A stretch of 60,873 nucleotides of DNA, filler included, from Circinaria calcarea (taxonomy: Eukaryota), in NCBI GenBank assembly GCA_051942165.1. It is 4 parts of 4 records of this genome, joined end to end, with 100 filler letters (N's around TTAATTAATTAA, not from the genome) between each part and the next. Parts side by side here need not be neighbours in the genome. Positions count along the whole stretch, not along the records: positions 15,292 to 30,434 come from JAVECS010000384.1; 3 more parts are not named here. One strand, written 5' to 3'. Below the pieces are notes generated by a model, which worked only from the letters and a program-made list of their open reading frames with translations, made no database searches and was not told the DNA's origin. Shown here piece by piece: positions 1,103 to 55,236 of this stretch (position 1 is the stretch's first letter; the number at the start of each line of letters is the position of its first letter). The translations under genes were made by a program, and so were the position numbers.

Positions 1103-3316
1103 CTAAATCTTCTCATCGACCACCACCTCGATACTTTCCTCAGTTGGCGTTGTATCTCGAGACTGGGCTTCCCCAGCTAGTATTCCGCGTCTATTCAATA
1201 CGAACGGAGTACTTCCCCTTTGACCGGGCGTCGGGAAAACCATATGCAACACTGCATGTACGGTGAAGGCAACACCAAACCCGAAAAAGTAACTCAGCTG
1301 GAATAGACGGTCCCAACCGCTATTGCTAGACGTGCCACGGATTTGCCGGATAAAGCCCGGCATAAGCGGGCCAAATCCAATTCCCCTGTGCTCTGTCAGA
1401 ACAGGTATGTTATGACGATAAACCGAAGAAAAGCGGACAACGAACCAGGCTACGAAGGCACGCCAATTAAAACCGGCAATGTACCAGTATGCTGAACTGC
1501 TATCCCCGATATATAGATCACCCAAGTGGAGCTCCCGGTGACGGATGAGGAAGTAGTCGGCAATTAGGACACCCGTCATCGGAGAGAAAAAGACAGACCA
1601 GCCGGAGAGGACGCTAATGAATCATAAGCGTATGAACCAGTTCAAACCCCCAAACATCATGAGCTGGATCTTTTGTCTGTGCTTACGTGATGAAGGTTGT
1701 AGCCCGATTAACAAAGTTCCACGGGCAAACGGCGATTCCAATTATCATGATGATATACGCTCCGCGTCTAATGTTAATGTATTTTGGACACAGAGCAGCG
1801 AGATCCATACCCGCAGCCACCGAGTTGAGTACTATGCAGAGGGCAAGCTGGCTAGCTAGGAGACCGAGACCCGCGAAGAATGTACCGGCTCGTCCTGCTG
1901 GGGTCATTGTCTGCTGCGCATGTAGTAGCAGCTGAAAAGGATTCCAGTAGATTTCTCCATATATCTTAGTGGTTGCTGATGTGATGAGGATCCCGCAAAG
2001 AGCGGTGATACTAATTGTTAGAGGGGCGGTGACGGCCTGGCCGAAAAGAGCTGCGTTAGGATACTTTGCGTATCTCGTCCAGTCTATAAAGAATTAGTCA
2101 AACCGCTTCATAGCAACACACATACTCATACCGCTCTGGCCGAGACATCCAGTGCCATATCCACCGATAAATGACTGCAAGCCATACACGGAATTCCAAC
2201 TCAACATCCTTCCGCCCACTTTGGGCCCTGTGTTGACGAGATCACCCGCTCCTTTGGCAGAGACAAGTGCCCAAATGAGCTATACTGCATCAACAGTTGC
2301 AATCCTTCTAGATAATGAATGAACGTACCATTCCCAACATAACTGCTGTGACCATGAGAAAAGCAACCTTGGCAGAACCGGGTTAGTGGCGCACTTATAT
2401 CCAGAAAAGAATTCCTCAATACATACCCTAAAAAGCATCTGAAGTTTCTCCGGGCGAATCCAAAGCATTGCAGCTAAGTAAAGGTAAGCCCACTCTGCAG
2501 AAGATGTTGCTTTAGCAGTGCAGTACGGACCAAGAATCAGAACAAATATAAAGAAGCTTATCAAATCTGCCGTCTCCACATAAGCAGAAACTGGTATTGT
2601 GTTCTTCATGTATATGAACTTAGGTCCAATGATGCTGCCAAGAATAATCCGAACGGCCTGACCGCCCCAGTACATTTGTAGCCCTAAACATATCAGAGCG
2701 CAAGGCTTCGCAAGTTGGTGGGTAGCGGCAAATACCCATCCAAACAGAACCTGTCATCACTCGCTGCAAAACAGGCCAGAATGCACCTCGCATACCCCAT
2801 GTACTGTCATCATTTTAGTCCGTGATAGTCTTATTCTGCTATAATCTCTGATAGCGTTACCTTCTCGAGAGGACGGTGAAGCCCAAGTATTGATGAGATC
2901 CCATCCACCCTGCTCCGACAGCAAGTAGTGCAATCAATAGGGACGCGCATACTACGATCCCCATTGCATGACCTACGCTTAGACCCAGAGCAAGTAAGGT
3001 AGACCCGATTGTCCATGGGGTGGTATTGATACCTGAAGAGGTATGAGGACTGATCTAGCCACCGAGAGTCAAAACACATACCGGCAATAACCCAATACCC
3101 CGCAAAACCCTGCCATGTCCACGTTCGCCTATTATAGGGGATAGGAATCAGATCTCTATTGCACCACTGATTGAATTCCGTCAGCAAGTATTCAGATAGC
3201 TTTCGTTGTAGAAGCCTTCAGACATAAGTGTTCTCATAATCCGCATCTGCATCAATTGGACATTCCAGCTTCTTCGCCCACCGCCTCGCCACTGTTTTAG
3301 ATGATAGGGACGACAT
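1103..3316 (-). CDS. NCS1-family nucleobase/allantoin/uracil permease (Fur4/Dal4-like), multi-exon
   Basis: Exon translations WCNRDLIPIPYNRRTWTW, YWGGQAV, PKYINIRRGAYI...CPWNF, GVLIADYFLIRH, GFNWRAF; GT-AG introns with CTRAC branch sites; inferred ATG at 3316 (MSSLSSK...). Confidence 0.9.
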
Positions 3317-4725
3317 CTACGTCCAACGGTATGTTTCCGGTAGATGTCTTCCAATTAAGCAATTCAAAAGAACAATTCGTTCAAAGTTACACCGAGGAAG
3401 GAGACCTGGAAAGCAACAGCAGATGAAGTAGAACCAAAAGGTGATTTGTGGAAAAGCGAAGTGGACACGACTAATCGGCTCCTCCGAGTGATTAGTGATG
3501 CAGGTAATCGTACCCCCCAGTAAAGCTGTCGCTTATTAATTGGAGATAAAGTCAAGCCAATAGGTGGTGGGCTAAGTGCCAGACCATGCCGTACTGCATG
3601 CCGGCAGAGGTTTGGTGAGAATGAGAGCAATATGGCGATGGTAGGGGAAAAAGGGATATGCGCGGTTGATGAGATACTCAGGTGTTAGAACTATTGAATT
3701 TTTAGGGTGTGGATTTTGCGACTAAAAGGCTGTAGTAGCGGTTGTGGTTAGTCACGTGATACAATTCTATATAGTGGCCTTCACCCACTGCTTTAATCAA
3801 GTAAAGCAAAGCAAGTCAAGCAAGTTAGGTCATGTACGTTCCTCGCAATACATTGAATAGATCTCTATTATTAGTTACCGAATCAGAGCCGCGAGCGTGC
3901 TAAAATATATTCTTTATTTCATAACTAAGATTAAGCTCTTCCTTCAAAAGAAACCCCGCAACCCGCCTTTCGCCGTGGTAGCTCTATCACAGTAGAACAG
4001 TGAAGAGGGAGAGGACACTTCCTCAAATCTCCAAGGTAAACAAATAAACATAAGTGTGAGACTGTGGGAGTTCTCACCTCTGAAACCAACTAGGCTGATT
4101 CCATTTACCTCCTAGCTGTTCTAGCTGCTGACTGATATAAACACCATGATCGCCGGTTGAGGGGTTTGAAGTAGGACTTACCGCTTGAGTTGTAGTTTTG
4201 GCATATTGCTTTCTCATTTCATTGCAATGTCGTGTTCATGAACAGACACGTTTAGCCCTCATCTATTTACCGGAACCTTTGGTCTGGCTAGGTGTCTAAA
4301 AGTACAAAGTGGCGGATTCTTCGGTTGTGGCGCCCCTGTCATGCTATGCTATCCTACGCTATGCGTTAAGGTGGAATGGGGCGCCAGGCAACATTGGGAT
4401 GTGGGAAAGCTTGAGAAACCAATGCAGCAACCCTACAGCCGTGTGAGAGCTTAGCTCCAGCTCCACGGTGCATCATGATCGCAACTCACTCCGTATACTC
4501 CATAGCTCCACATAGCCAAATCCTGTTGAGCGTCAACATCTCCCTAGACGAAATGGGGAATCAATAACAGATGCCGAAGACGATCGTACTGCGGGTCGTT
4601 GGAATCGTGTCAGTCGTGATGTGGAAAAATCAGATGCACGGCGTATCGAGCAATCTATCGAGACCATGCTGAAACCGTGATGCCCGTCATGCTAGCTCTT
4701 GCTTCTCCGTCTTACTCGTACCATG

Positions 4726-15191: not shown

Positions 15192-15291
15192 NNNNNNNNN
15201 NNNNNNNNNNNNNNNNNNNNNNNNNNNNNNNNNNNTTAATTAATTAANNNNNNNNNNNNNNNNNNNNNNNNNNNNNNNNNNNNNNNNNNNN
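15192..15291. other. Artificial contig-joining linker (44N-TTAATTAATTAA-44N)
   Basis: Exactly 100 bp; 12-mer has stops in all six frames; identical at three places. Confidence 0.97.
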
Positions 15292-15786
15292 GTTATGAGG
15301 ATGTAATATTTACCTTTGAGCCGATCAGCAGAGCAAAAGCCGTACTGACTCTAACCTTCGTCCCGATATCATCCTCCAATCCTCGTTAGCAGCTTTTTCG
15401 TAGCTGCTTTGGTCCTAGCAAACCTTTGGCCATAGATATCTCACCATCTCCTTCATGATGGCCCAGTCTGCCTTCCTTTGCTCTTGATTTGATACTGTCT
15501 GCTCCGACAATAGGGGATCGGTTTTGAGCGCATCACCGGACTTCGCAGCTATTGGCTTTTGTAACGCCTCTGGTTTGATGCTCTCCGGGACCTCATTTTG
15601 CAGAGGAGACGCGCTACGGAGACCATCGGTAGGCCGCTGTGTTCGCCATAGAATACTGGCTTGAGTGAATGGTCGAGCAACTGGGCTAATCAGAATCCGT
15701 CGTAGGGGTTGATGCGCGGCAAGACAAGAGCGTTGGAAAGATCGAATTGAATAGAGCTTTGCCCTTGGAGGAATTCGAATGAGCAT
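15292..15786 (-). CDS. ATM1: Mitochondrial ABC transporter Atm1, 5' fragment truncated by contig end
   Basis: Arg/Ser-rich presequence; EQRKADWAIMKEMVRYLWPK|DDIGTKVRVSTAFALLIGSK, then an intron donor and the linker. Confidence 0.85.
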
Positions 15787-16150
15787 GATATTTTCTGTGC
15801 CTGAGTGCCTCTCAGTGAAGCACTCAGTTCACCCCAATCATTGCCCCTGGCATGGAAACGCGGAAGGGCGCTCGCGAAGATGAAGTATGCTTTGCTATGA
15901 TTGTAACTATGGTGACGTGAAGTAATCCATTAGATCTGGAGTTCTAATAGTGACTCTCCGCAACCTTCTAGCTAGATTATGCATAATTTGAAGGATGCTG
16001 GCGTTGTAGCCTTATTACTTCTATCGTTGCCGGGACCGCTGTCGGACTAACCCCACGCTTGTGCGCGGCAGCTTTCCGCCTAAGGGTTTCTAACAGCTTC
16101 AAAGCTTCCATCCGCTGGAGCTATACAAGCAACTCTCTATATTCAACATA

Positions 16151-17605
16151 ATGCGCCATACACTAGGAGCTGTAACGAAATGTACCCTGACACATTCCAG
16201 GAATTTACGGTCCACAGGAACACATCGTGGATGTATTCCGAAGAAGAGGTTACTGCAGGTTTCCGCAACTCCATCTGGGGCTTCTCCCAGCGCTCTGCCT
16301 TTGGAATCGTCAACGACTACCAATGCCGAGTCACCTGGTCAGCAGTTCATGGCAATTGGACGTATACAGCAGTTGACGCGTGATAGATGCTAAATTCGAA
16401 GTGCTTGGCGCACCCTATTCCCTCCTCTCGGTTTCACTGTCCGCTTCTCAAAACCTTTACACCCGGCGTGGAACGCTGGTAGGAATCAGCGGAAAAGCAG
16501 AGAATGTGTGCCAATCTACGCCTCGGTCAGGTCTTCCTCGCGTACGGCTAATTGGATAGGCCATCTCGACTCTTTCCATGCTCGAACCTTTCCGCCGTGC
16601 TTTACTAGGAATTCCATTCCTCTATCAAAAGGTACCCGACATGGCCAAATTTTCACAAATGGCTGATTAAGAGACGCAGGTGTCATCCACAAGTCCTATT
16701 ACGGCCCTCATTTCAACCAAGTCCCCAATTACGTCGTTCGCCGTGGTTCATCTCGATGGTACCCTAGACTGGATGATAGCTCAGAGGCGGGCTTTGCTTG
16801 CATGGACGGGATATACTCTCTCCATTAGCCCTACTATTAACAGACGCATGGTTGGCATCTAGTTCGGAATGGTAAGCATTCGAAGCTAACGGATGAAGAG
16901 CGTAGCGCACTGGGGAAATTCCCAAGTAACCGGGCGAGGTTTGCTAGCTTTGGCTGGAAACGGACAGATTTACCAAATAAGTCTCAAGACAGGGGAAGAA
17001 TATGTTGCTCACCCAAGGTAAGCCGGGCATGGGAGGTGAAGCGAATGTTTCTAAGATCTCTAGCAATGTGGTTGCCTACACAGTTACTCAACATCCTCCA
17101 TTACCATACCGGTTGAAATCTTCAGTACTCCAGTTTCAGACACCTAAGATCAACATGTCCGGCATATTACCAGAAACTAAGTTCTTTCGGGTCATGCGCG
17201 ACAGTTATACCTGGAGAGCTTTGACAAACTTCATTTTCACTCTGCGGACGTGGTCAAGGAGAACGATATGGGGTGACAGGGTGAGAACCTGGAAATCGAA
17301 GCTTCGGGCTTGACAATGGACTGATCTTATCTTTTTAGCTATTCTTGCAATTCCACGGCCCTACAACAATCTTATTACAGACTCGGGCTTCTCGCCTAAG
17401 CGATGTACTTAGCACTCGGGACGTCAACGAGATTGCAGACAGTCCACCAGGTGCAATACAAGCGGCAGTAACATTGGCAATGTCCGGACCTGAAAAGCGT
17501 GATACGGACTCATCGAGTGGCACCACTCCGGCTTCTGCTAGGCCTACACGGCTTAGCATGGCGAGTATCGGACAGGATGGAAAGGTAACGTTTGAAGAAA
17601 AGTGA
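16151..17605 (+). CDS. AIM24: Altered inheritance of mitochondria protein 24, multi-exon
   Basis: Spliced [69 protein letters not shown]; presequence-like N-terminus. Confidence 0.85.
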
Positions 17606-18394
17606 ATTTCGGCGTTGTTCCCTCCCTGTCAAATGGGCGAAGGAGGCATCTCATTCAATGGTTCGGACAGCGAATGCTACAGGTGTGCGCGCTTCCTTGG
17701 AAGAAAAACGATCATATCATTGTGGTGTAGTATAGTTCTAAGACACGCATGCTCAACTCCCACGCCCGGGGAATTAGTAGGCCAGGCACAGAAAGTTCAA
17801 AGTTGCAGCACTAGACCCAGGTACTTTACTGCGATGGACAAGTCAAGCTCAGAGGGTACGAATGTGCACAACCTCTTGTGCTTTTCACAATGTTGGGAAG
17901 GGGGCTTCTTAGGTACAGTTGGAGAAGACGCAACGGGATCAAAATCCCCTTGGACGAGGCGAACACACCAATGCTAAAGAACCTCATCTACCAATTTAAA
18001 ACATGTATTTACAAAACAGTCGCCATGTTCAAAGGGGTATTCTAGATCAGAGTAGAACAATATCTCTTTCCGTTTCGTTTCTGTGGGCATTGTCGAGAAA
18101 CTGGATAGTAGGCAGCATGCAGATCCATTCCATGCCATTGAATCAGATAGATCGACTTTCCCCATGTTTCAAGCAGAAGGGAGTGAAGTACGGTAGTGTC
18201 CTTAAATAGTCGAATAATAGAGAAATGCAAAAACGTCAAAGTCTAGCAGCCTTGAAAGAGATACCAGATTCTCAAGCTGGAATTCCCCTTCTCTGCGCTC
18301 AAGTCTTACCGAGATCCAAAACTAACCGGTCAGATGGGATAGAGAGTGATTCCTTGATATAGCAGTAAGGTAACCTGGGGCTGCAACGCTAAAC

Positions 18395-19533
18395 CTACAC
18401 CTTGGCTTCGACACCAGAATGTAAACTATAGGCGCTCAGGTCATCCGTCTCGGTTGTTCTATGGAGTTCATGTCTGCGATTCAACGCTATTCTGTCAGAA
18501 TTGTTATAGGGGGTCGAAGATTTGCGGTTCGGCCTTGAAAGAAGACTGCGGTAGCTTGGCAGCGCACAAACCATCACAGCAATGGTGGGTTCGCAAAGTG
18601 CCCAGGCTGCGTTGGCGTTGGGGAATCGGGATAAGTAGCTGGAAGCGGTATAGACGGTTCGCAGGATGTCGAACACAATGTCGATTGTTACAATTGCAAA
18701 AATAGCGGCGAGGCCAATTTTCTGTGATCTCGCCATCTGCAAGGACCTCAGCATGCTCAAAGGAAGGGCCATAACTGGTTGACATTAGTGGGCGTCTATG
18801 GGGGGAGGGAGCTTTTACAGCAGCACGACATACTTAGCAGGTCTCCAATCACGTTTAGGACGCACCAAAGTGAGACGATGGTAATCACACGCTTTTGCGT
18901 TATTGAGCTACACACCTCTATAATGGTTTATTAACACTTTGAAGCATTCCGGCTTGGGAACAATACTGTAAGCAGTAGAGATGAAGGTCTGGACATACTA
19001 GGATCGATGGCACTTTTCGGGTTATTACATTGCCATAACTTGGCTATAAGAATACCACAAAAAGAGAGGCAGGTATAGACCGTGACTGCCCACCACGCCT
19101 TTCGAAAGCCCGGCGATACTTTGAATAAAGACCAGTATAGAGCCAGGAACGAAGCCTTGACCAGATAAATAACAATCCAAAACAAAATTATATTGGCTAA
19201 TCTTATTTTGAGACTGAAAATGATCTCCTCTTCGGTCGGCGCGACATCGCTAAGGCCGAGACGATAGAGTTGAGCATTGTACTCGGTAGGGAGGTATACT
19301 TGGTAGGTTGCAATGAAGCCTATAAGAGCCACCAGCGCTGCGCCGTTCAAACCGTCGTCCCACTGAAGCTTCCGAACAATCCTCCATCTGGTGTAAAACC
19401 GACCGAAGGTAAGAAGGATAGCAAGCACACAGAGGGTCCATGCTAGCGCCTCGAGGATGTCAGCGTGAACGTCCGATTACAGTCAGGGAAACGGGAGACA
19501 TACATTCAAGCCAGCGATTGGGATAATGTCCAT
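18395..19533 (-). CDS. PTH11-like (fungal rhodopsin-domain) integral membrane protein without CFEM
   Basis: RFYTRWRIVRKLQWDDG, YLVKASFLALY, MALPL...QKIGLAAIF, WALCEPTIAVMVCALP; multiple TM segments; first exon uncertain. Confidence 0.85.
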
Positions 19534-20711
19534 GCTGGCGCTGTCAAGATTCCTGCCGGACCTTGGAAGTATTCAGAGGACTTGGAGGAGAAAAGAGTGG
19601 TTTTATATCCCATATCTCCCAGGCCCAGGCCTCCTGGACTAGGTACGGCTGGATGGACCATATCGAGGGGGGTTTGATATGTGTATGTTTGGCTGGGATT
19701 TTCTGCTACTCGGGGTAACCATGAACCCCAAGGGGTCCCTTTGCTTAGCGGCCTTTCATAGATATTTACTTAGCCAAGAAATAATAATACTAATGGCTGA
19801 TTTTAGCGGGTGCCCACCATTTCATGGTCACCCCGAGTGATTGGGCAGGTTATTAGGCTGTTCCGCACATCTACAGCTGGTTTCCCGATAAGGTCACTCC
19901 TGGATGCTGAACTGGAGGCGAATAGACAAGCGAGAGTAGGGTTACATTGTTATTTAGACTTCGTGTACCCTTGCGCTGCTCACGCATGGTGGCGCCATCG
20001 ACTCACGAGATGCGGGCCGGTACATAAATGCTCGTCATTCTCTGCAACATCCGGCAATACGGTTGGCCCAGCTAGATCTCTCCATCTCGCTGTCCCTTAG
20101 CTTTGCATTCAACGTCGCATCAGCCATTGGATCTCCAGATTACCTACATAACTCAATGCGGGCTAATGGAGCAAGCAGTAGTCAGTCTTCTTCCAATGAT
20201 GTGGAGTCGGGAGACGGGATGCTTAGACGATACCACTTGGCCGGGCCTAAAATATCCTCATCGAGCCTCGTCCGAGTAACAGCCTTCAGCCAGACCAATG
20301 TCATTCATTTCTACAGCAGTACTCTCTAATCTCACCCCCTTACCTATTTGGACTTGGGTACCTGTCGTACCACATGATTGCCTCGCTGACTTCCCGTTCT
20401 AACCTACTGTTTGAGGCGTAGGTAGTTGAGTGCTCGCAGGCCGTTATCATGCTACCGGCCGGGGGAAAGAGTTGGCCAGACCGTGCAACACGGAATACCC
20501 TTCTCACCTTCTACTGAGAGGAGGTAGGTCATTGTCGATCGATCAGGCAATTTTTATTCTCTTCACCCCGGTCTCGCCGCTACTTTGGATTGTTCTTTTC
20601 AAGCTCTCTCACTTTGCAATTGGGTCTTTAGCTTTCAAATCCACAATGAGCTCTTGAAGTAATGACGTATAAATCAAAGCATTGGGAAATCTGTTGCTCT
20701 TAGCAGTAATC

Positions 20712-23117
20712 ATGAAATCTGTAGCAATCGTTGGCGCAGGCCCTGCTGGCCTCGTGGCGGCAAAAACTCTCCTCCATTCTTATCCCGCAGGAACTTTCCG
20801 AGTATTCATTTACGAACAGTCTCCTCGCATTGGTGGCCTATGGGCTTGTGAATCGCCTGTTCAAACTGGCCTCATCAATCCTGAAATGCGGACAAATCTT
20901 ACCCAGTTCACTGTTTCCTTCTCTGATTTGTCTTGGGAATCTGTCGATGTCAGTAGTAGGCCTCATGTCGATGGCTCGAATGTAACTGCTACGGATGCTA
21001 CCATCGCACCCATATATCCAAAGGCATGGCATGTGGACCGTTACCTCCGGCAATACTTTCAGAAATTCATCCCAGCAGATATCATCTCTTTCAACACTCG
21101 GGTCAAAAATGCAGAGCGGGTTCATCAGGATGGACGCATATATTGGAAAGTTAAATCTTTCGATTATTATTCTAACCATCACGTTGAGGCTGAAAGAATA
21201 TTTGACTATATGATTGTCACTTCCGGCTTTCTCGAGCGGCCGCGGGAGATTGACTGTAAGATCCACGATATTGTTCCCAGCCAACGCCAAATACGGATCT
21301 TACATAGCTCTCAATTTCGAACACTTTCCGACCTATCAATCGACGGTGAACCACTGAAGGGGGGAAAGGTGCTCGTCGTGGGTGGCTCTCATTCAGGAGG
21401 TGATATAGCAGCATCCATTGCCTTCCAGATGTCCACTGGTCGATATTCGCCATTATCTCAAGGCGCCCAGCCTTTAGAAATCGTTCATGTTATGCCGCAG
21501 CCAATGTACGCTATTCCTCCTTTTATCCCAGCCAGCGAAGAGACTCGAGGTTTCATGCCTTTGGACTTCCTCCTCTACCGAGCAGTAACGCGCCCTCCAG
21601 GACCGATTTCATTTTCCTTTGGAAGAATGGCACCCGAGAGAGCTGAAGGAACGCGAAACCTAATTCTATCCCTGTTAAACGGGAGCAAGCCTGATTCAAC
21701 CTCCCTAGAGACTGAGAAACAAGAGGCTAGAGAGATGGTTCCACCATATGCAATTGTCAATGAAAGCTATGTGGAATTTGTTCGGTCGGGTGCTATTGTG
21801 CCCAAGATTGGGCGTCTGCTACATTTGGCCACGCAGCAAGCTAGCACTTCTCCGAGAGTGAGTCGTTCTAATCCGGTATGCAAATCCAATATATCTAGTC
21901 TTCTCCTATTGAGATCTTCTCCGCCTCGTCAAATACCTCTGTAACTAAGCAGTTCTAACAGTATATAGAATGACCTTGACTTCTTATGTGCTACCGTGGC
22001 CAATTGCTCGGATGCAATTCAAATTGAAGACGTTGCGGCTGTTGTTTATGCTACCGGCTACACGGCCTCGGCGGCTCTTAGTTTTCTTCCTGACGAAGTA
22101 AAAACGCATCTCGGATTCGATGCTGCTTATCCTCGTCTACCTTTACTACTTGAAAGCGACTTCTTAACGCGTACAGCAGCAATCCCAGACCTGGCCTTTA
22201 TCGGTTTCAGCAATGGGCCTTACTGGGGTGTCATGGAAATGCAAGCTCGTGTAACGGCCAGAAGATGGGCTTTCGACATGGAGTTAGGAGCAGAGGAAAG
22301 AAGAAAGCAGGATTCGGCAAATATCATTTCCTGCATGCACGACTTTAGACACGCTATGGCAAATGAGAAATCGGCCGTACCGCAGAATCTGTTTGGTGAT
22401 TACGTCGGCCTTATGGAGCAGGCGTCCAGGGAGTTGGATCTCGAAAGGAACGACCTGAGCTGGGGGGAAAGGGAGGGTCCGATATGCCCTTCACGCTACA
22501 CTGACGCGGGAACCGATCAAAAGGAAGCGCAGAAAACCATGGCAAGTCTTCAGCAAGTGATGGAGAAAGCTCTACACCAAGGATTGTTTGTTGCGAGAGC
22601 CGCCTTTCGAGCTTTGCAAGGCAACTGGAAAACCCAGTGTTTGGGCCGTCAGGATCCCCCAAGCCCTGCTCTCCTAAATCAGAATTTGACTGTCACGGCC
22701 AGCTTTCATCCCCGAACACCAACGGACCCAGACTTTGACTTGGAGTATCTCTACATCGAGAAATGCATGTCTGTTGCCGACGCTGGCGACACTGGAGCCG
22801 TCAGCCGCAGCCTCGTATATCGATACAGTGAAGCTCGGGATAAGATGGGGGTGTGGTCCGTCCAGGACGACGACGACGACGGCAACGGCACCATGACGGC
22901 CGGTCGCCTCGATTACCTCGTCGATTTCGACTTGGCTGACGGGAAGCCTCCGACGGAGAAGAAGACATGGTCCGCCATCGGAAGGAATACCCATGGCGTC
23001 GACACCGTCTCCTCCACCTACACGTTTCATTTCACCGGTGCGGCTTTGCACATGTTCTCGATCGAGACCCAAATCGGCAATACCGACGCCGGACCTGTGC
23101 TTGAGTTTGTACGCTGA
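20712..23117 (+). CDS. Flavin-containing monooxygenase-like protein with extra C-terminal (DUF6314-like) domain
   Basis: VAIVGAGPAGL FAD motif, EQSPRIGGLW, ILHSSQF, VLVVGGSHSG, VVYATGY; intron ~21858-21968 (gtgagt...ctaac...tag) joins ORFs 20682-21944 and 21996-23117 in frame. Confidence 0.85.
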
Positions 23118-23384
23118 GGGAAGGAGATTATCCCGCCGGGGGGGGGGAAGTATCATCCGACTAGCTGGCAATGACTTGTTACGGATCGTGTAGCCAGGGA
23201 AGGAAAGTTCATGTTTTCGTTTTCTCTACCCTCCTTATGGGGAATGGGGCCTTTATAATACGGGTTATTATAGTATCACTACGTCAGCTGAACCGCATAA
23301 GCTCCCATCATTGCTTCCATTGGGTCAATTCATCATTGCGCAGAAGAATTCCCATTTAGCTAGCTACGTTACGCTACCCTACTT

Positions 23385-24852
23385 CTACACGTGCACCGCT
23401 TGCGATAAGACCGCCGTCCGGAATGTGATTCCTTTGGTCTGCTCGATGACCTGCTGATAGACGGACTGAGGGGGATGGTTCATCACGACGGTACCGTCCC
23501 GGTAGTCGATTTTGGCGTCGACGCGGGTGTCGCGGATGAGATTGACGATCCATTTCTCGCCTTCGTCTTGGTTGAGGCCGAGGCGGGTGGAGAGGTCTCT
23601 GGGAAGGCTGGGTTAGCTACTTTGCTCGGAGAGTTCAAGGGTCGGGAGAAAGATGGGGATGGCAATGAGAGTGAGAGAGAGAGAGAGAGAGAGAGAAATG
23701 GGCTTACTTGATGTCAATACGTTGGTGAATCTTGCAATAGCTTTCCGAAATCAAATGTCTTGCAGCCTCTACGAATGCCTCTGCTGCCGCCACTAGGAAG
23801 AAATCCCCTCTTAGCACCTCCTCCGCCTCGCTCAGCTTCTTCTGGGCCTCTTCGAAGTCGAAATCAATATATAATGCCTTGATGAAATCTGTAATTGGAT
23901 CATTGTACTCGTAGCCCTCTTGCCGTACTATCCGGACCAGATCCTTCAACTGTTTTTGGTATTGACCTGTATTCCGGCTGCGGCTGCGGTTCGTGATGAC
24001 TGCGGCGGCAAGGTAGCGTAAGATCCAGGGGCAGGCGGTTTGAATGGTGTTGATGAAGGCGGGGGAGAAGAAGAGTTCGCAGATGGTATCACGGGCCGGT
24101 TCGTAGTTGAAAAAGGGAAAGAGTGTCCAGTGGATGAGCCAGGTTCGGTGTTGGAGTTGCGCGAGCGGGTTATTGAAGAGCTTTGTATCTATCGATTCCT
24201 TCACCTTGTTGATTTCGTCCATGACCACCTCCCAGTTTGTGGTTAGGATGTCCGAGGCCAACTTGCCCCATGACGCCGAGGTAGCTTTGTCGTTGTCGGT
24301 GGAGAGGATTCGGAATTGGTCGAGCAGGTGCGCGGCATCGGCGTACTTGCCGCACTGGTACTGGAAACGGCCGTAATCGTAGAGCATGTCGACCATTTCA
24401 ATCGTGACGCCGTGTGACTGTTCGAGGAATTTCAGGTTGGCGACTTTGTCGCTGCGCAGGTTCGTGACGACGCTTTCGTCGTTCAGGAGCTCGTCGATCT
24501 GGCTCGTCTCTTCCGAGAAGAGCTGTAACCGCTGAAGGACCTCCTCTCTCTTCTTGACGAATTCCTCGGGTATCTCGTCGCTGTCGTTGATCTCTTGCCA
24601 GAGGTTTGCGACATAGTCGGTCATGTTGGTCTGCTTGAGAAGCTCATATTTCATCGTGGTAATGTTCGTGGCATCGTCGCCTTCCTGGCCGGAGAGAAAT
24701 TCGAGTAGAGGGTAGATCAGGTGTCGATCGAGGTTGGGGATGAGTTTGGGTAGGAGATCATATTGCTCTGTGATATCTGTAGGGGTTTGCTGTGCTTGTG
24801 CCATGTTACCGTTCAACATCGCCCCAGCTGAGGTGGGTGTATTGTCCGCCAT
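23385..24852 (-). CDS. INT6: Translation initiation factor eIF3 subunit e
   Basis: [45 protein letters not shown]; after one intron [21 protein letters not shown] (PCI domain). Confidence 0.96.
23667..23696. repeat. (GA)n microsatellite inside the eIF3e intron
   Basis: gagagtgagagagagagagagagagagaga. Confidence 0.85.
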
Positions 24853-25670
24853 GATTGCAGGCTGAGTTAAAGGTAGAGGTCGTTGAAGTCTGAATGGGCT
24901 CACATACTGGAGTTCGCGAAATGTGTGCCAAGAATATTGAAATGTTGAAACGGCTTACGGTATCTATTAGGTTTCGGCTAAAATACGGAATATATCAACA
25001 CCCTATCTATTCTGCTGCTCCGTACTTGAATGCCTCAATTTACTATTGATACACCTCTACCGTACTCTAAATAGATCCTCCGCTTATTCCAACCTCTCAT
25101 CCTACCCATTATACGAAATCTGTAACCCTCTGAACTGTCGTGCTAGCATCCCGAACAGTGCATTCCTTAATTACAACGTTCGGGATCTCGAGAAGGACCA
25201 GTACTTTGTAGGAGGCGGGGCCGGAAGCGGGGAGAGATGAGGACGTAGCCCAGTGAATTACCGTTCAAGAAAATCTAGGTCTTGGGTATTTGACTGGGAG
25301 ATTATGTTGGATGAGACGGGAAGAGTTCAATGGGGCTACTTACGAAACGGGATGCGAGCTGAAATACTGAGTGGAATTGCAGCGCTGGAAATGTCTGACG
25401 GAGGGATACTATTCCCTTGGAATAGAATGTGTTAAATCGGTACTATTTGAGAGCAAAGGGGCCATCTCGGATGTCTTGTGTGCTTGCAAAGCTACAAGTA
25501 ACTACCTTGGTCATAAAATGAGTGTATAAGAGACGATTTCGTCTCGGCGAAAAGCAACCATTCAATCCTTGCTGATCGTTCAATCATCGTCCCCCAACCC
25601 AGTTCGAGTAGTAGCCTCGTCCATCCCAACTAAACACCAAGCTGACAATTCTGGCCAAGTCCCAGCCGCT

Positions 25671-26723
25671 TTAGAGGCCAGCGTGCTGCTGATCTTTCAG
25701 AATAGCCTGCTTGAAGTCGTTTGAAGGCCGGCTAATGGGGACCTCCAACATATTCTTGTCCTGGGCTCTGCAGCAGGTCCAGCATTCCTGAACAAATATA
25801 TCAGTCTTTCGTCATATGAACGATAACGCCATATTGCTATTTAACTTACACCAAACTGCCTCGCGTACTATGAAGTCTGCATTAGTAAAGAATCTCGATT
25901 TGAGAGTTACAGTCTTACCCAGGGCTTCTTGCATGTCGGCTTCTCTTCATAGCATATCAACAGGCAAACTTCACCATCGTCATTATCCAATTTATGTGCG
26001 AGGCTTTCCTTCTCCTCGATGATATTGATTGCATGGGTTGGGCCACTTGACACAAAAAGCACTGAAGAAGAATCCCGATGTGTACAGCAGGTCCAGCATT
26101 CCTAAATAGATATATTAGCTTATTCTTATACGAGCAGTTACAAAGTACTAGCATCAACTTACACCGAATTTCTTTGGGTACTATAGAGTCTTCGTTAGTG
26201 AAATTTTCAACTTGAGAGATATATTCTTACCGATGGGCTCATGCAATCCGGCTCCTCATCCATGCATATCCTTAGGCAAGCTTCGCCATCATCCGCTTTA
26301 TGCACGAGGCCTTTGTTCTCCTCAGGAATACTGACTGCGTGGCTTGGGCTATTTGGTCCAGAAAGCGTTGGGACGGTAGTACGTTGTCTCGTGCAGCAGG
26401 TCCAACATTCCTAAATGGATATGTTAGCTTTTTCAGTATACGAACGGTCACACGATATTAGTGTTGACATACACCGAACTTCTTTGCATACTAGGAAGTT
26501 TATATTAGCAAGATCCTCGACTGGAAGAACATATTCTGACCGAGGGTCTCATGCATGCCGGTTTCTCTAGATAGCATATTGCCAGGCAGATTTCACGACT
26601 ATCATCTATTTTGTGTGCGAGACCACTATTCCCTTCGCTTGGTCTCATTGAAACAGTATACGAAAGGGGAGAAGCCGTGGCCAAGGTGGCAAGGGTGGCC
26701 GCTCCGATAATTGTAAGCTTCAT
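25671..26723 (-). CDS. Secreted 238-aa protein with three tandem 6-Cys modules; 7 exons: 26723-26541, 26490-26473, 26410-26231, 26180-26163, 26101-25919, 25867-25850, 25787-25671
   Basis: Six GT-AG introns of 50-62 nt with CTRAY branch sites give one uninterrupted ORF; signal peptide MKLTIIGAATLATLATA; modules CLAICYLEKPACMRPSYAKKFGECWTCC, CLRICMDEEPDCMSPSYPKKFGECWTCC, CLLICYEEKPTCKKPWYARQFGECWTCC. Confidence 0.88.
25745..26640. repeat. Three diverged direct repeats of ~310 bp (exon plus intron units)
   Basis: cagcaggtccaRcattcct recurs at ~25771, ~26085 and ~26394; splice donors spaced 310 and 312 bp; introns are also similar; outer limits approximate. Confidence 0.9.
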
Positions 26724-26839
26724 CTTGCACTTCGGATATAGTGGCACAGGCCTGTGCTGGGAAATATTGTTTTTGCTATGGGTGTAAGTTGAGATGTCCG
26801 AACGGTGGAGCCAGGTTTGAACAGACAGGATGGATCTGA

Positions 26840-26845
26840 TTTATA
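26840..26845 (-). promoter_or_regulatory. Putative TATA box of the Cys-rich repeat gene
   Basis: TATAAA on the minus strand ~120 nt upstream of ATG 26723. Confidence 0.45.
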
Positions 26846-29291
26846 CATCTAGACTCGAGGGAGCAACTTGGATTCGGAGTGAACCAAATCGATCGGGACA
26901 CTGCATGTGTGCAAACTATTGGTGTACAGAATGTTCTTCGCTCCATGCACCTTGTACGTAAACTGCCGCCCCTTTGTATCCAGTTAAAGCCTTGAAGCAA
27001 TCATTGTAGATCATTCATAGGCTATAAGACCTCCGCATTCATGCAGACGGTCCGGGGACGCAGTTCATCTGCATCTCGATAAAAAGACACGATATAGTAC
27101 CGAGAGGTAGACATGGCTGATCGCAGATGATTGGGGCTTTATAAAAGTAGAAAATCATTTCGGGAATGGGGGCCATGTAGAGCTACTGCAGCGGACGTAG
27201 CTAACCACTAAAGGCGGAAACAGCATGGAAAGGTTAGTACACGAAAGTAGCAAAAGGAGAAGGTCTGCAGGATGTAAGCCTAAAGGCAAAAGGTCATGCC
27301 AATAAATAAGGATCGAGATTGACCGGGTTTATTCATTCGTAATTGCCATTGAGGCGCTGACGAAATCCGGTCTCGACCCAGCTACCTAAGCCAAACATCG
27401 CGGCCCGTTTTGCAGATTGGATGGCATTACCTTACCTTAGCCCAGCTTGAAGCTTACGCCCAGCCGGCATTTTTCTCACGAGGTATACGGGCTAAAATTT
27501 CATGTCTGGGTCGGGGGAGATCCTGTAATAGAACTGCAAACACTCCCTCGTGCAATTGGCATTTCGTGAAGGAGACGAAAATTGGTGAAAGGTGAAACAT
27601 TGGCTCTACTCCATTCGGGCTCTATGGATGTTAATGAATAGTCGGCGTTCCATGGTACCAGTAGTTCTGAGAGCGTCCTCTCTGTTGACTTGGAGTGCGC
27701 GTACGGAGTAGGTACGAAGCACATGTGAATCTTTCGCCTTGATGCGGTAACTCGGAAGCACGACCTGTTCGCCAATCTCGATCAGCCGAAGCCCCCCCCA
27801 ACGGGTAGCGCGGAATTAGAATTACTACCGTACGGCTTACATGCACCTTTACCTTTGTAAGAGGAGCTTCAGCAACGAGTTGATTTGGTACCTATACTCC
27901 GTACGGCCCAGCCAAGCCATTGCAGGAGTTTCCCATGCATCTCCACACGAGCCTGCAATGGAGCTTATGCCGGGTCTCGAGAGGGCATAGCTTAACCATT
28001 GCTATCTTAGCTGGCTTGGGGTCTTGGAGCCCTGTATGTGACCATATACACGACTTGTCATCATCCCTCTTCAAGGTGCTAAGGGGATGGGGTTTGTGCG
28101 GTCTCGAATTAATGATCCAGGCCACGGATATGAATTGAAGCGCTGCCTCGAGTATTAGGCAGTCGCTTTTCGAAAACATCTCTATAGACGCCAAGGTAGT
28201 CCTTATGATCGTGGTCTTCGGATTGGTCCCCACAGAGATGATCGAAATGCTTCCCAGCGAATACCTCCTAATATGCCAATCAATAATTGACACGGAGTGT
28301 TAATTTTTATTGATTGGCGATCGATCGATCGCGTCAGTCTGACCGAATCGGTTGCAGCTCAATGATGCTCAGATGGTAAGCGGACGATGGTTCAAAACTG
28401 CCCCGATCTGTTGGGAAGTGCCAATTCAAGTCACTCATGTCAATTCCCTCGCCATATCTCCCCTCCCAGCCGTTATTCGTTCTTTTGTTTCCCTTTTAAG
28501 GTCTTAGTCTAATATATTCTCAAGGAGAACACTCGCATAGCCGTTATATTCTTTTCCACTGTAGATCTCGATCTATCTCTTCTCGTGTACGCTTTCATAT
28601 GCGTATAGACGACTAAGAGAAAGTTCCGATGTAAGGGTGGCTAGGGCGTCCATTGGAACCCGTTCTATGATAGGCTAGAAATACACAAAAAGGCAAGATG
28701 CTGTACGTCCTTTCGTAAGCTATTTCCTGAGCTGGCATGACAAGGCCGTGCGGGGGCACTTGGCATCCCAGACTGGCCCTCGTATTTATGCACACCCAAG
28801 GGATTTAATATAATCTAAATAGGTAAAACTTAGTAGAAGCACCAGCTAGAGGGGTAATATAGAGATATTGCCTTTTCCCAGGCTTGATCCTCAGTAATCA
28901 AGCTAGGCATCACACCCTTTGTGGACCAGGGTCGTCGGGAGAGTAGCAATCTTCTGTCCAGAGGAGCCCAGACATGGCGGGTGTATTGCTTACACACTAT
29001 TAACCTGAGCTGCGCTGAGGAGTCGATGCATTGATCCTGCTCCGCAACACCGGTGACCAGATGATGCATCACCGACGTCGTGTGTCTGCTTATGAGAGGC
29101 CTTGCGAGTGAGCTCGGCCCACACTTTCTTCCTTGCCGAGATTTCACGGCTAGCGGAATGGCGCTAAGGATAATAGCCGGGAGAAGGAACGTCAATACGA
29201 ACTTAGCCCACCGGCCTGGTCGATAACTAATCGGTACAGAAATCGAATTGCTTGAGACGACACGACAAAATCCCTCAGTTCTCAGTAGACA

Positions 29292-29851
29292 ATGGCACCC
29301 CCATTTCTACTATCTTTCCTGTACCCTCGTCCTCCTCCGCGACTGTCTCTGATCCGAAGCTGTCTCCGTACCATATCCACCACTCGCCCTCTACGGCAAG
29401 AAGGTATAGATAGCTAGCTGCCCCCATTCAGCGGACCTTACCTCGTAAAAGAAAAAGCAAATCCTGACATCGTATATTCAGCGTCAGCCATCACCGCGCC
29501 TCCCCAACCCCAGGGCCCCTCACAGGGAACCTCCTCCGTCCTCCTCACCTACCACGTCAACCGCACACCCTCCCAGCAACTCCCCGTCTACCACCTCGCC
29601 AAGCGCGGCGGGAACCTCAAGCAAACGCGGATCCGGAAGATCAGCGGGGATGTCGCAAGTCTGCGGCAAGATCTCCAGCAGGCGCTGGGCTTGAGGGAAG
29701 AGCATATCGTGATTAACCAGTTGACCAAACATATCATTATCAAGGTAAGAAGTAATGGAGCGGAGCTTTCTTTCCTTGGCTTATGATTGGGATGATCTAG
29801 GGTTGGAAGAAAACCGAGGTAGCCAAGTTTCTGCAGGAGAAACGGTTCTAG
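29292..29851 (+). CDS. IMG2: Mitochondrial ribosomal protein mL49/Img2 (3 exons; absent from ORF track)
   Basis: YHVNRTPSQQLPVYHLAKRGGNLKQTRIRKISGD...INQLTKHIIIK|GWKKTEVAKFLQEKRF*. Confidence 0.9.
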
Positions 29852-30434
29852 AGGGGCCATATAGGATCCACGAATTGTTGCGGGTGTACCTCCAGGAGGT
29901 TGAGATGGTACGGGGCTATCTGCAATCGACATCAAGAGGGCCGTCATACGGGGGTGCCGCTCAGCCTCGAATTTCTGAACCGCTTGGCGCAAATCTAATA
30001 GCTGGCCAAAGCTGACACTTGAGTATCGCGGGAAGCCGATATACCAAGACACAAACTTACTGGCCTTTATAAGTGAGCTTGTCGGCGCTGAATACTTGGC
30101 TTCCTTTATTAGAGGGGGTTGCTTTCTAGCATGATATCAGGAAAGCCCGGATGGTTGGGTGGAACCGCTCTAGTACTATATTGAGGCTTTGTCTCTAAAA
30201 GAAAATTTGGACAGAAGCCATTGGAATGGGTGAAGGCTTGATCAGACCGGCTTTTATTTCTGTGCAAAAAGATCTAGGTAGCGTCCCCGAAAGGCTAACA
30301 TGGTTACCGCTGTTGCTTCAGAAACAGGCCGTACTTTGCCAATCCTCACATCCAAAACGCGCCTCGCTATGCCCATGCGGATCTAAAAGTCACTCATTCG
30401 CAGCTGTTCGTTCAAGTCTCGAGGACAACTCCTC

Positions 30435-30534
30435 NNNNNNNNNNNNNNNNNNNNNNNNNNNNNNNNNNNNNNNNNNNNTTAATTAATTAANNNNNNNNNN
30501 NNNNNNNNNNNNNNNNNNNNNNNNNNNNNNNNNN
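30435..30534. other. Artificial contig-joining linker
   Basis: 44N-TTAATTAATTAA-44N. Confidence 0.97.
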
Positions 30535-45663: not shown

Positions 45664-45763
45664 NNNNNNNNNNNNNNNNNNNNNNNNNNNNNNNNNNNNN
45701 NNNNNNNTTAATTAATTAANNNNNNNNNNNNNNNNNNNNNNNNNNNNNNNNNNNNNNNNNNNN
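45664..45763. other. Artificial contig-joining linker
   Basis: 44N-TTAATTAATTAA-44N. Confidence 0.97.
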
Positions 45764-51819: not shown

Positions 51820-52413
51820 TCTCTCGAGTCTCTTGTACATACAACTCTACCTACTTTTTGGCGCGAACAGGCTTGATGGTGGCGGACCATATTGTCTCGA
51901 TTATGCTACTCAATCTTTTACATAGGGAAACAGGACCAGTGCCGGCGTATTTTTAGCTTCAGAGCTCCATCGAGAGCTTCTTATGTATTATAATATGTAT
52001 GATATCAGCAAGGGGTAGCAGAGTGTAAAGTATATAGAGGATTGGTGTACCCATACAAAGATCTGGTGACATTGGCTAAATCTGCTATTCCAGTGATATT
52101 GATTTCAGCAGCTGACTTTTATTCACAGTATCACATGTGAGGATGCTCACATGTCGCGACCAACGATCGCCCTCGGTCAACGGTCTTACATATTTCCGCT
52201 AGCGGACGATCAAAGCTGCAGGCTCCGTTTGTTGACATGAGCCCTTCGGACTTTTAAGAAGTGATTGCTAAACACACTTATCGCAGAGCATTGCTTCATA
52301 TATTTACTAAGTCTCTTTAGCTTTGAGTTGCTGACATCCTCTGCTTTGCTTCACAAGATCCCCGTTCCTATGAGTGGGACATTCGCTGCTCGAATCGACA
52401 TCGCGGACGGGAC

Positions 52414-55236
52414 ATGGAATCTTTCCTAGGAAATGGCCCACGAACTAATCAACAGACTGGCTTCACACCTGTTCGACGGCGACATGATACCGATCCATAC
52501 ATGTCACCCACCGTGTACAGCAAAGCTCCATGGACTACCAGTCGTTGTAATCGCCTGCTCCGTCCAATATCTTCAAGAGTCGTACTCCTGCGCAAGCACA
52601 AGCTACAACCTGCTGAGGACCGTAACAACTTTGCTCGGGCTGTGCCCTTTGCAAAGAATCAACCAAACACCAGAGATCATAATGAAACTCTTCGAGCCGC
52701 CGAATCTCGTCAACCATTGTGTGAGAGATTGGACAAAAAGGACCACGATCCAGACTGGGCACCAGAGGATGGACCACGAAAGAGATTGAAGCGTACATAT
52801 TCTTCCAAGTCCGGCTTGCAATTTATGGAGCAAGCGCGCACGCGACGCCTTCGCAGTATAGACATAGCTCGAGACGAAGATAACACGCAACTGCCCCTAC
52901 TTAGGAATCGGAACGAAACGCAGAGCGCAATGCTATTTCAATCCTTCATGAGCAAGCCTCAAGTATTAGGTACCTATGGCCGCATCTATCTGGGTAACAG
53001 ACCCATAAGGGGTAAGAGCAGAATTCAAGGAAAGGGGTCCCACGCCACTGTACGCGAGTCTGTTCGTAGGCTTGCCAAATCTGTGTCACCGTCTGAGTGG
53101 ATGCTCGTTGATGGTCTCTACAATGCTCTCGATGCCTTGCTAAAAGCGACTACCGGCAGCAAGATCCCAGCAAATAGTGGCGCACCGTCACTCTTCTCTT
53201 CTTGCCTCCGGAAGATTCCGCATTATATTATACAAGAGCAAAGGATGATCGGGGTAGACGATCCGGACCCGGACACTGATGTTACGTCAGAAATATTCGC
53301 AGATTTGGAATCATACGGATTATCGGAATGTGGAGGATGGAAACCACTGAGGGAGATTGTGAGAGCTCACGGTATCGCCATCCTAGGGGCTGCTATCGAA
53401 GATGGCTTCATTAACGCTTCAATTGCTCGAGGGCTCGTCCTCCTATGTACTCAAGCATCTGCATACAGTGAGGCAGAACATCTCATCCAAAGCTTGATTA
53501 CGGTCACACGGCCACTGCCGGAGCCAAGGTCCCTGTCTGAACGATTGTTTACAACTAATGTGTGCCTTGGTACCCTAAATGACTTTTACTATCGAACAGA
53601 ACGGCACAGCTTCTTCTACCGTCAACTTACTGTCTTGCTATCGAGCAGAATTATACCTGTTGAGTGGATATCAAGTTATGACATGGTCGATTGCTGGAAT
53701 CAGGTCATGGGGCATATAATAGCGGAAGACTCCCATATTGAGGAGGCCACTCTCTTACTTCAGTGTGCAGTCTCCATGGCATACACTAGCTTGGGTACTC
53801 CGATAAGCAATACGATCCACCTCCATCGATTGCAATCACGGGCAAGTCCAAGGCTAGATATTCAGGCATATGGACGAAAGGATTCGTTAGCTCCCAAAGA
53901 TGCGCATCCACATTGCATATTACAGCAAAGTGACCATCAGGAGAGCAGTATAGCTATAGCGATCACCAGCACTATCACTAATTTACTTACCGTCCTCCTC
54001 TCGATTGGAATTGTACACTCGGATGCAAGAGGCACCGACTCCCTGCCCACGCATTCGGCTATCCTACGAGGTCTTGCAATTGACGCTCAACAGCATTACG
54101 AACTGTCTCCTTGTCCCCAATCACAAATCCAAGAGTTAGGCATGCGTGAAGCTCGCCTTGCAATAGTACTGCTTGCCCATGGCATATCGGATCTAACATC
54201 AATTACTTCGGAACCTACCCATATTAAACTTGAGACAGGTTGGCTTGATACAATAAGTGAGTTCAATGAAAAGGCAAAGATGGCTGATCGACTGTCATCG
54301 TTTTGCTGTGCCGTTGCACACTGCTGTGATCGAGCGGGACCAAAGGACGGATTCGAGCACCTACAGAATATGCTTCAGTGCCTTTTGGATCTTCCATTCT
54401 CTCAGGTAGGAAGCGCCATGCGATCGTTGATTCGGCATATTGCTATGGATGCAGCATTTGAATTTGCAGAGGGAACAAATCAAAAGGACCAGTTGAATTG
54501 GGCACTAGAATTAGAGGAAAACCTCAACGCCGAATGTCGCAAAGCTGATGGCAAAATTTTGGGCAGGACACCGGCACGAGCTTCCATGAAGCCCTCGGCA
54601 GGTTTTCGCTGGGAGGAAGGGATTTGCGAATGGATTGCCAGGACTCCGGCTGTTGCGCTAGCACAGACTAAAGCAGATCAATCCAGCGGTGGCCTATGTC
54701 GAATTCTGGACCAAGACCAAGCTCATGGCCCAATGGACAAATCACCATCCCTTAACCGCAGACCTACCTGTCAACAAGTCTCGAGCATGGTGCTCGATGG
54801 AGAGAATGAGGGCATGATAGCGTCATTGCCAACTGGACGACCCTCCTTTCCGGACCTTTGCAGTACCCCATTGAAGAGGGTGCTGTCAGACAATATTCAT
54901 TCCTACGAATCCAAACCCCGACTTTCCCATGTGCGCCGGAAGAGCCCGATTGGTGAAGGCAACCAGGCACGGATAGTGCAAGGCGTTCATGTATTCGACG
55001 ACGATACGGACGAACTCTCTACGCACGAATCATCTCAGGAGCCACAGTATGGAGGACGGCGACCAGTCTTGCGGGAACTTTCCAACCTCGCATCCAAGAT
55101 ATGCCAGACGAGCACAGGGAAACGGAAGGCGGGTTCGTCTAGGCACAGATCAGTGCTTTCGAAACATCGTCGGACGCAGTCCGGCTTGTTGTGGGAGATG
55201 GGGGAGAATGTCAGCGAAGACGAGCTTGGGGTGTGA
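52414..55236 (+). CDS. Uncharacterised 940-aa protein, intronless
   Basis: Long stop-free ORF; motifs WTTSRCNRLLRPISSR, GWKPLREIVRAHG, FRWEEGICEW, terminal SEDELG. Confidence 0.8.
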   Translation: MESFLGNGPRTNQQTGFTPVRRRHDTDPYMSPTVYSKAPWTTSRCNRLLRPISSRVVLLRKHKLQPAEDRNNFARAVPFAKNQPNTRDHNETLRAAESRQPLCERLDKKDHDPDWAPEDGPRKRLKRTYSSKSGLQFMEQARTRRLRSIDIARDEDNTQLPLLRNRNETQSAMLFQSFMSKPQVLGTYGRIYLGNRPIRGKSRIQGKGSHATVRESVRRLAKSVSPSEWMLVDGLYNALDALLKATTGSKIPANSGAPSLFSSCLRKIPHYIIQEQRMIGVDDPDPDTDVTSEIFADLESYGLSECGGWKPLREIVRAHGIAILGAAIEDGFINASIARGLVLLCTQASAYSEAEHLIQSLITVTRPLPEPRSLSERLFTTNVCLGTLNDFYYRTERHSFFYRQLTVLLSSRIIPVEWISSYDMVDCWNQVMGHIIAEDSHIEEATLLLQCAVSMAYTSLGTPISNTIHLHRLQSRASPRLDIQAYGRKDSLAPKDAHPHCILQQSDHQESSIAIAITSTITNLLTVLLSIGIVHSDARGTDSLPTHSAILRGLAIDAQQHYELSPCPQSQIQELGMREARLAIVLLAHGISDLTSITSEPTHIKLETGWLDTISEFNEKAKMADRLSSFCCAVAHCCDRAGPKDGFEHLQNMLQCLLDLPFSQVGSAMRSLIRHIAMDAAFEFAEGTNQKDQLNWALELEENLNAECRKADGKILGRTPARASMKPSAGFRWEEGICEWIARTPAVALAQTKADQSSGGLCRILDQDQAHGPMDKSPSLNRRPTCQQVSSMVLDGENEGMIASLPTGRPSFPDLCSTPLKRVLSDNIHSYESKPRLSHVRRKSPIGEGNQARIVQGVHVFDDDTDELSTHESSQEPQYGGRRPVLRELSNLASKICQTSTGKRKAGSSRHRSVLSKHRRTQSGLLWEMGENVSEDELGV

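Follow-up and report, generated by a model that had tools for sequence, protein, structure and literature searches.

A predicted seven-exon gene of Circinaria calcarea encoding three tandem modules of an unnamed cysteine-rich fungal family

The gene and its product

Circinaria calcarea, which we take to be a lichen-forming fungus, belongs to the Lecanoromycetes, Pertusariales. The window, the whole stretch of 60,873 nucleotides analyzed here, consists of separate contigs joined by runs of N at 15192-15291, 30435-30534 and 45664-45763, and so genes outside about 15292-30434 are not true neighbors of the gene of interest, which is on contig G000:C384. This is a predicted gene on the minus strand at 25671..26723, with its ATG at 26723 and a stop codon that ends at 25671. 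Its seven exons are of 183, 18, 180, 18, 183, 18 and 117 nt in 5′ to 3′ order, and removal of the six introns leaves a frame of 717 nt specifying 238 amino acids. All the introns are GT-AG, in phase 0, 50-62 nt long and AT-rich (GC 0.30-0.38), and in each of them a CTRAY branch site lies 17-18 nt from the acceptor.

Exon 1 (26541..26723; all features of the gene given here are on the minus strand) carries the start codon, the hydrophobic N-terminus, a pro-segment of 28 amino acids and the first three cysteines of module 1. The N-terminus is signal-peptide-like over about amino acids 1-17 (26673-26723), as judged by hydropathy only (peak of 2.0 over 9 residues), and it would presumably be cleaved off. 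Each module is interrupted around a microexon of 18 nt. For module 1 this is exon 2 (26473..26490), which encodes the first strand of a predicted hairpin, and exon 3 (26231..26410) then supplies the CWTCC end of that module, a linker of 38 amino acids and Cys1-3 of module 2. The microexon of module 2 is exon 4 (26163..26180) and it is followed by exon 5 (25919..26101), with the end of module 2, a linker of 39 amino acids and Cys1-3 of module 3. Exon 6 (25850..25867) is the third microexon, and exon 7 (25671..25787) encodes the end of module 3 and a tail of 32 amino acids before the stop codon. The TATA-like box at 26840..26845, which precedes the ATG by 122 nt, is a consensus match only; a paralogue of the gene on G000:C273 has a similar box 110 nt upstream.

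All 18 cysteines of the protein, 7.6% of its residues, are within three modules of 28 amino acids that share the framework C-x3-C-x6-C-x11-C-W-T-C-C, a spacing of 3-6-11-2-0. With DNA spans taken from the exon table, module 1 (amino acids 46-73; 26393..26588) spans introns 1 and 2, module 2 (112-139; 26084..26278) introns 3 and 4, and module 3 (179-206; 25770..25966) introns 5 and 6, and their respective charges are +2, -2 and +1. Compared pairwise, they are identical at 17-21 of the 28 positions. The two linkers are free of cysteine and 23-32% Ser/Thr/Pro. A sequence-only reading had spliced this frame by hand and described three tandem six-cysteine modules separated by cysteine-free spacers, and both the frame and the architecture are confirmed.

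Among the neighbors on the 15-kb contig are genes for eIF3e, a flavin monooxygenase, a fungal rhodopsin-domain protein and Img2, and nothing in the scanned ORFs of that contig points to a peptide biosynthetic cluster. Over 92% of its length the eIF3e exon is 100% identical to a protein from a C. calcarea MAG, and the named matches that come next, at no more than 87%, are from other lichen fungi. The flavin monooxygenase-like gene, at 20673-23117 on the plus strand, adjoins that for eIF3e and has a C-terminal region without a Pfam match. On a different contig, 52327-55236 (plus strand) is an open frame of 969 amino acids that has no Pfam match at E ≤ 0.01.

Evidence for splicing and for descent by cassette duplication

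The search for splice models was unguided, with donor, acceptor and microexon sizes all free, and it returned exactly one model for each of the three modules, in every case with an 18-nt microexon. Introns 1, 3 and 5 are paralogous to each other and so are introns 2, 4 and 6, with z values of 3.2-8.7 against shuffles, as compared to -0.6 to 1.4 for cross pairs. The splicing pattern of the modules is thus not due to chance, and the array arose by duplication, within the gene, of a cassette with two introns and one microexon.

A Logan protein of 218 amino acids, P0001, is identical to the window protein at 172 of 218 aligned residues (79%), and all six exon junctions are read through contiguously in it. 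The contig from which it derives is 975 nt, whereas 990 nt would be required were introns like those in the window present; a transcript of a relative, already spliced, is thus its most likely source. Identity between the two proteins is 70/84 in the modules and 87/117 in the linkers, a difference that is not significant (p 0.17). In the protein collection the protein of the window itself did not turn up, the single candidate there having weak evidence, and the gene is therefore probably unannotated.

Contig G000:C384 is almost wholly duplicated, by G000:C459:405-7541 together with G000:C125:14544-22555, at 92-95% identity, which suggests the presence of two genotypes or haplotypes within one assembly. 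The haplotype-like copy of the gene retains all 12 splice sites. Between the copies 28 codons differ, 20 of them with a change of residue, and these changes are sparse in the modules (2 in 84 codons versus 18 in the 154 others; p 0.014). One of the changes is a stop at codon 233 of the other copy, by which only the tail is shortened. Elsewhere in the assembly, at G000:C6:15799-42326, two motif matches are mirrored on the opposite strand (15799/42326 and 20758/37367), from which it follows that there is a large inverted duplication, centered near 29062, though this may be an assembly artifact.

The intron layout is not peculiar to this gene. A motif search of its own genome gave 49 matches (21 in the control), and among the 42 that were inspected (30 + 12 loci) the upstream cysteine pattern was present only in the two copies of the gene and in two paralogues, both single-module. 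That on G000:C273 (about 1923-2351, minus strand) encodes 95 amino acids with spacing 3-6-15-2-0, and that on G000:C1605 (about 3942-4329, plus strand) 83 amino acids with spacing 3-6-11-2-0. In each the first intron falls four codons past Cys3 and there is an 18-nt microexon, with two alternative models involving 9-nt exons also possible for the C1605 paralogue. A scan of metagenome contigs for a second acceptor plus the motif, in which the second intron is therefore present by construction, yielded 92 loci, of which 8 are true members. With a position three to five codons after Cys3 allowed, five of the 8 have the first intron, and it is four codons after Cys3 with a microexon of 18 nt, once 24 nt; alternative models are possible in three of these five. 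In the remaining three, of which two are near-identical, the second intron is the only one. Among these members L124 is notable for being itself a gene of three modules, in which an intron follows Cys3. The shared intron positions speak for a single origin, for these loci at any rate.

An unnamed family of fungal modules

A phmmer search of 1.84 billion representatives with P0001 as query gave 40 matches at E ≤ 0.001, and the module is present in 38 of them; the other two, the bacterial repeat proteins P0009 and P0012, lack the motif and were discarded as artifacts. A profile built from 14 single-module matches added 12 proteins and cluster look-ups a further six near-duplicates, to give 56 in all. 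By strict pattern these have 94 modules, one in each of 36 proteins, two in each of 12, and three to seven in the other 8. The spacing 3-6-11-2-0 is found in 72 of the 94, the variants having mostly a longer third or second gap. Across 61 distinct modules of 28 amino acids the Trp is conserved in 98%, the Thr in 93% and the Gly before Cys4 in 84%.

On the basis of the phmmer and profile searches of protein representatives, all the named members are fungal, with many others unnamed. They are from Aspergillus, Fusarium, Neocosmospora, Thelonectria, Phlyctema, Pseudogymnoascus, Trematosphaeria, Stagonospora, Westerdykella, Sporormia, Agaricus, Macrolepiota, Amanita, Mycena and Cunninghamella, and so presumably from three phyla, Ascomycota, Basidiomycota (Agaricales) and Mucoromycota (Cunninghamella). 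Their labels are 'hypothetical', 'uncharacterised' or 'small cysteine-rich protein', the exceptions being the UniRef names 'Kazal-like' and 'retrotransposon gag'. The latter is attached to a stretch of P0014 (Mycena pura, 565 amino acids), which has modules also and is probably a merged gene model. The longest array, in P0002 of Phlyctema vagabunda (694 amino acids, 57 cysteines), keeps seven or more modules intact, alongside several that are degenerate, with cysteines lost. P0025 of Sporormia fimetaria (151 amino acids) has one module and then short acidic repeats ending in KR, a tail reminiscent of the repeats of Kex2-processed proteins (KEPs).

In a set of 50 proteins (85 modules and 30 cysteine-free linkers), the 56 minus the six near-duplicates, 48 have a hydrophobic N-terminus and none has a hydrophobic C-terminal tail. 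Modules within a protein are more alike than modules of different proteins (0.41 for 22 pairs versus 0.28 for 1631 pairs), a comparison of sequences that fits with repeated, independent tandem expansion. Searches of Pfam, NCBIfam and PDB with family sequences gave no significant match, and no member has a catalytic Pfam domain (39 proteins at E ≤ 0.01). A match to the Kv4.2 tail (E 0.09-3.7) was treated as chance. All Atlas matches were below 0.9 and are leads only: a 'Pathogenicity protein family' (Ascomycota, 59 members) at 0.85 and 0.83, and MGF 110, with an antifungal-protein row at only 0.75. The literature covered, which took in few subscription papers and no supplements, gave no description of the motif forms, the Agaricus record name or the tandem modules. 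On sequence grounds, then, the module defines an unnamed fungal disulfide-rich family that has neither a Pfam entry nor a solved relative. The earlier expectation of an uncharacterized family, with short homologues already on record as hypothetical proteins and no match to hydrophobin, CFEM, LysM or AFP/PAF patterns, held on each of these points, the last by Pfam profile searches, and the strong match to a characterized domain family that would have counted against it did not emerge from the three collections searched.

Predicted structure

AlphaFold, given a single module and an alignment of 32 sequences, places 30 residues at pLDDT ≥ 90 and predicts an all-beta mini-domain with no helix. In the model a short N-terminal strand and a bridge after Cys2 are followed by a long loop and, at the C-terminal end, by a hairpin; the first strand of this hairpin is the part encoded by the microexon. 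The turn is just before Cys4, and Cys4-6, with the terminal CC, are all in the last strand. For the tri-module arrangement P0001 was folded in place of the window protein: its three modules are at pLDDT about 94, the linkers are partly below 50 and the pTM is 0.30, so that the modules are predicted to be independent beads on disordered linkers.

Foldseek comparison with PDB and BFVD gave no match at E ≤ 0.001, its alpha-defensin (cryptdin) rows having E 6-9 and TM of only 0.2-0.37. The best lead from VIA is the knottin Evasin-3 (6i31), with Z 2.6, rmsd 2.6 and 41 aligned residues at 7% identity, a score tied with that of an unrelated chain at Z 2.5 and far below a trustworthy level; with a single module VIA gave no match at Z ≥ 2. 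These negative results do not show that the fold of the module is new.

Probably linked modules rather than a peptide precursor

The product had been proposed to be a multi-peptide precursor, with a multivalent binder as the other option. What defines a KEP is a signal peptide together with repeats that have Kex2 sites between them (PMC6339444, in the portion available). There is no KR or RR in the pro-region of the window protein or in either linker, and its KK pairs are inside modules, never between them. In the family KR or RR is present in 2 of the 30 cysteine-free linkers versus 1.56 in shuffles, which is chance level, and within the 12 residues upstream of just 7 of the 85 modules. In P0001, unlike the window protein, a KR does immediately precede the third module. 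Pro, Ser and Thr make up at least half of the linker in 5 of the 30. By this tally of dibasic sites the modules likely remain linked, as in the secreted cysteine-rich repeat proteins known as SCREPs, and it is the multivalent option, for which the bead-like model of P0001 also speaks, that gains support at the expense of the precursor.

The net charge of the modules has a median of 0 and is +3 or more in only 14 of the 85, which argues against a membrane-active cationic peptide. The gamma-core, defined in the accessible text of PMC6062912 as GXC-X3-9-C or C-X3-9-GXC, is a low-information pattern that 61 of the 85 modules and all three in the window match in both forms. The initial suggestion that GECWTCC is a GxC-x3-C gamma-core stands as a formal sequence match but not structurally, since that segment is modeled as mostly one strand with the turn before Cys4. 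A gamma-core is expected to have two antiparallel strands and a short turn within the motif, and it is the C-X9-GXC form that the modeled hairpin fits, as far as the model goes.

What the protein may do

The interpretation we tentatively favor, at somewhat below an even chance, is that the gene specifies a secreted multivalent binder that is not cut by Kex2 and whose target is repeated on a surface and likely to be a glycan of the cell wall. The protein would be secreted by means of its signal-like N-terminus, and its modules, each presumably with three disulfides, would form three small beta-sheet domains, separated by flexible linkers, that bind the target with avidity. The fixed aromatic and Thr positions, with charge free to vary, suggest a ligand that is conserved and uncharged, for which a surface or cell-wall glycan is the first candidate; the glycan guess draws on the near-invariant Trp and Thr, on conserved aromatics combined with varying charge and on the Pro/Thr-rich linkers of some relatives. 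Against a glycan binder, carbohydrate-binding modules of the classical kind usually come attached to enzymes and no member here is fused to a recognized one, and with single modules in 36 of 56 members avidity is not required for the function of the family. Other points against this reading are that the window linkers are low in Ser/Thr/Pro, are predicted to be disordered and may be open to clipping by other proteases, that P0001 has a KR before a module, and that conservation relative to that protein is not significantly greater in modules than in linkers. A considerably less probable explanation, yet one to be taken seriously, is that the modules are peptides for competition or defense, antimicrobial or receptor-targeting like defensins and knottins, with the array as a dosage device from which they are freed by proteases other than Kex2, or active while linked. 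A small secreted three-disulfide beta scaffold with terminal CC, the frequency of the gamma-core-type sequence, the weak knottin lead and patchy occurrence across lifestyles are all in keeping with this, but the near-neutral charges are not, the modules are conserved rather than diversifying between the haplotype-like copies, and a gamma-core is no guarantee of antimicrobial activity according to the part of PMC11561630 available.

Canonical inhibition of proteases or hydrolases, with the segment between Cys1 and Cys2 as reactive loop and tandem copies acting on several enzymes, is unlikely: in 73 of the 85 modules position 3 is taken by R, L, A or K, which we infer to be P1-like, and one member has the automatic 'Kazal-like' name, but no Kazal, TIL or antistasin match was found in Pfam (32 members at E ≤ 1; 39 proteins at E ≤ 0.01), and the model lacks the central helix that Kazal inhibitors have. 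The spacing may resemble that of antistasin and TIL repeats and of crotamine, a likeness to which none of the searches lent support. Release of three peptides from a Kex2-processed polyprotein is a little less probable again, the dibasic counts being set against a signal-like N-terminus followed by repeats, a basic and then acidic residues before each window module, and KR or RR just before a module in P0001 and P0031. Lichens handle metals, and six invariant cysteines per 28 residues could chelate them without forming disulfides, as in a metallothionein-like repeat; this is improbable given that the signal-like N-terminus indicates an oxidizing compartment and that an even number of cysteines, their fixed spacing, the invariant Trp and a confidently predicted beta fold all suit disulfides. 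That the gene is a splicing artifact or dead, as the early stop in its other copy might intimate, is scarcely credible: that stop trims the tail alone, the introns are canonical and their positions common to distant fungi, the relative P0001 is contiguous and the modules are under constraint.

On a more speculative note, and with little probability attached, the module might be an undescribed and ancient fungal three-disulfide beta fold, either a knottin with its disulfides shifted across the hairpin or a counterpart of the trans-defensins, its microexon kept in Ascomycota and its sequence shared with Basidiomycota and Mucoromycota; the tandem form in lichen fungi would then be a multivalent ligand that recognizes the algal partner or the microbiome of the thallus.

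Whatever the ligand, the family is compact and alignable, with six invariant cysteines and a near-invariant W-T in three fungal phyla and no Pfam entry, while being one of many uncharacterized families of small secreted cysteine-rich proteins. Genes with 18-nt microexons are easily missed, and so it is probably under-counted. A module of 28 residues can be synthesized, which makes its fold, its disulfide pattern and its activity accessible to direct test, and it may offer a stable scaffold of a new kind. Where surface recognition by a lichen fungus is concerned, a secreted multivalent module makes a concrete candidate.

Relationship to known systems

Several fungal candidates were rejected. 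In a CSalphabeta defensin a helix bearing C-X3-C is paired with a last strand bearing C-X-C. A CSalphabeta defensin-like peptide, of which the lambda-Zytrisins are examples, would share six cysteines, C-x3-C, often neutral or acidic charge and occasional two-domain forms, but there is no CxC in the framework here and no helix in a model at pLDDT > 90, and the introns of these peptides, one following the signal peptide in phase 0 and one within the Cys4 codon in phase 2, are unlike those of the window gene (PMC5234102, from the sections available). Coccidioides DEFBL (bioRxiv 10.1101/2023.03.04.531116) and ChEC88/BAS3 (PMC12389015, partial text) have other cysteine frameworks, and a Lignosus paper (PMC4659598) is, in its accessible portion, about cerato-platanins and hydrophobins. 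The Kazal label is an automatic UniRef name.

In a knottin the Cys3-Cys6 bond passes through a ring closed by Cys1-Cys4 and Cys2-Cys5. Evasin-3 has in common with the module six cysteines over 28-29 residues, a small antiparallel beta-sheet and, from cysteine numbers 22, 26 and 33, first spacings of 3 and 6. It continues 3-1-10 with Cys4 and Cys5 around the second strand, whereas the module continues 11-2-0 with Cys4-6 in the last strand (6i31; PMC6643034, as far as its available text goes). The trans-defensins, alpha and beta, in which opposed disulfides issue from the terminal CC, are alike in having about 30 residues, three disulfides (inferred here), a terminal CC in a beta-strand, G-x-C before that CC and no long helix. 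The beta-defensin spacing is C-X6-C-X4-C-X9-C-X6-CC (bioRxiv 10.1101/2023.03.04.531116), different from 3-6-11-2-0, and the module is not cationic; within the accessible part of PMC11561630, trans-defensins are recorded for vertebrates and for some invertebrates. KEPs and dikaritin precursors (PMC6339444 and PMC7329392, each in part) have a signal peptide and internal repeats as here, but the window protein is without Kex2 sites between its repeats, and those repeats are cysteine-rich and predicted to be folded. DUF3328/UstYa gave no match among the scanned ORFs of the 15-kb contig, with small exons only partly covered.

In architecture the protein recalls the SCREPs, as compiled in ScrepYard. 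Judging from the available sections of PMC9885460, its domain differs in not being recognized by Pfam, and its linkers of 38-39 amino acids contrast with the 20 or fewer in 85.57% of two-domain SCREPs. It is likewise of secreted type, by hydropathy, with tandem homologous disulfide-rich domains and cysteine-free linkers, and its cysteine content of 7.6% is between the 5% and 10% filters used there. Multivalent action has been proposed for the SCREP class in the same text.
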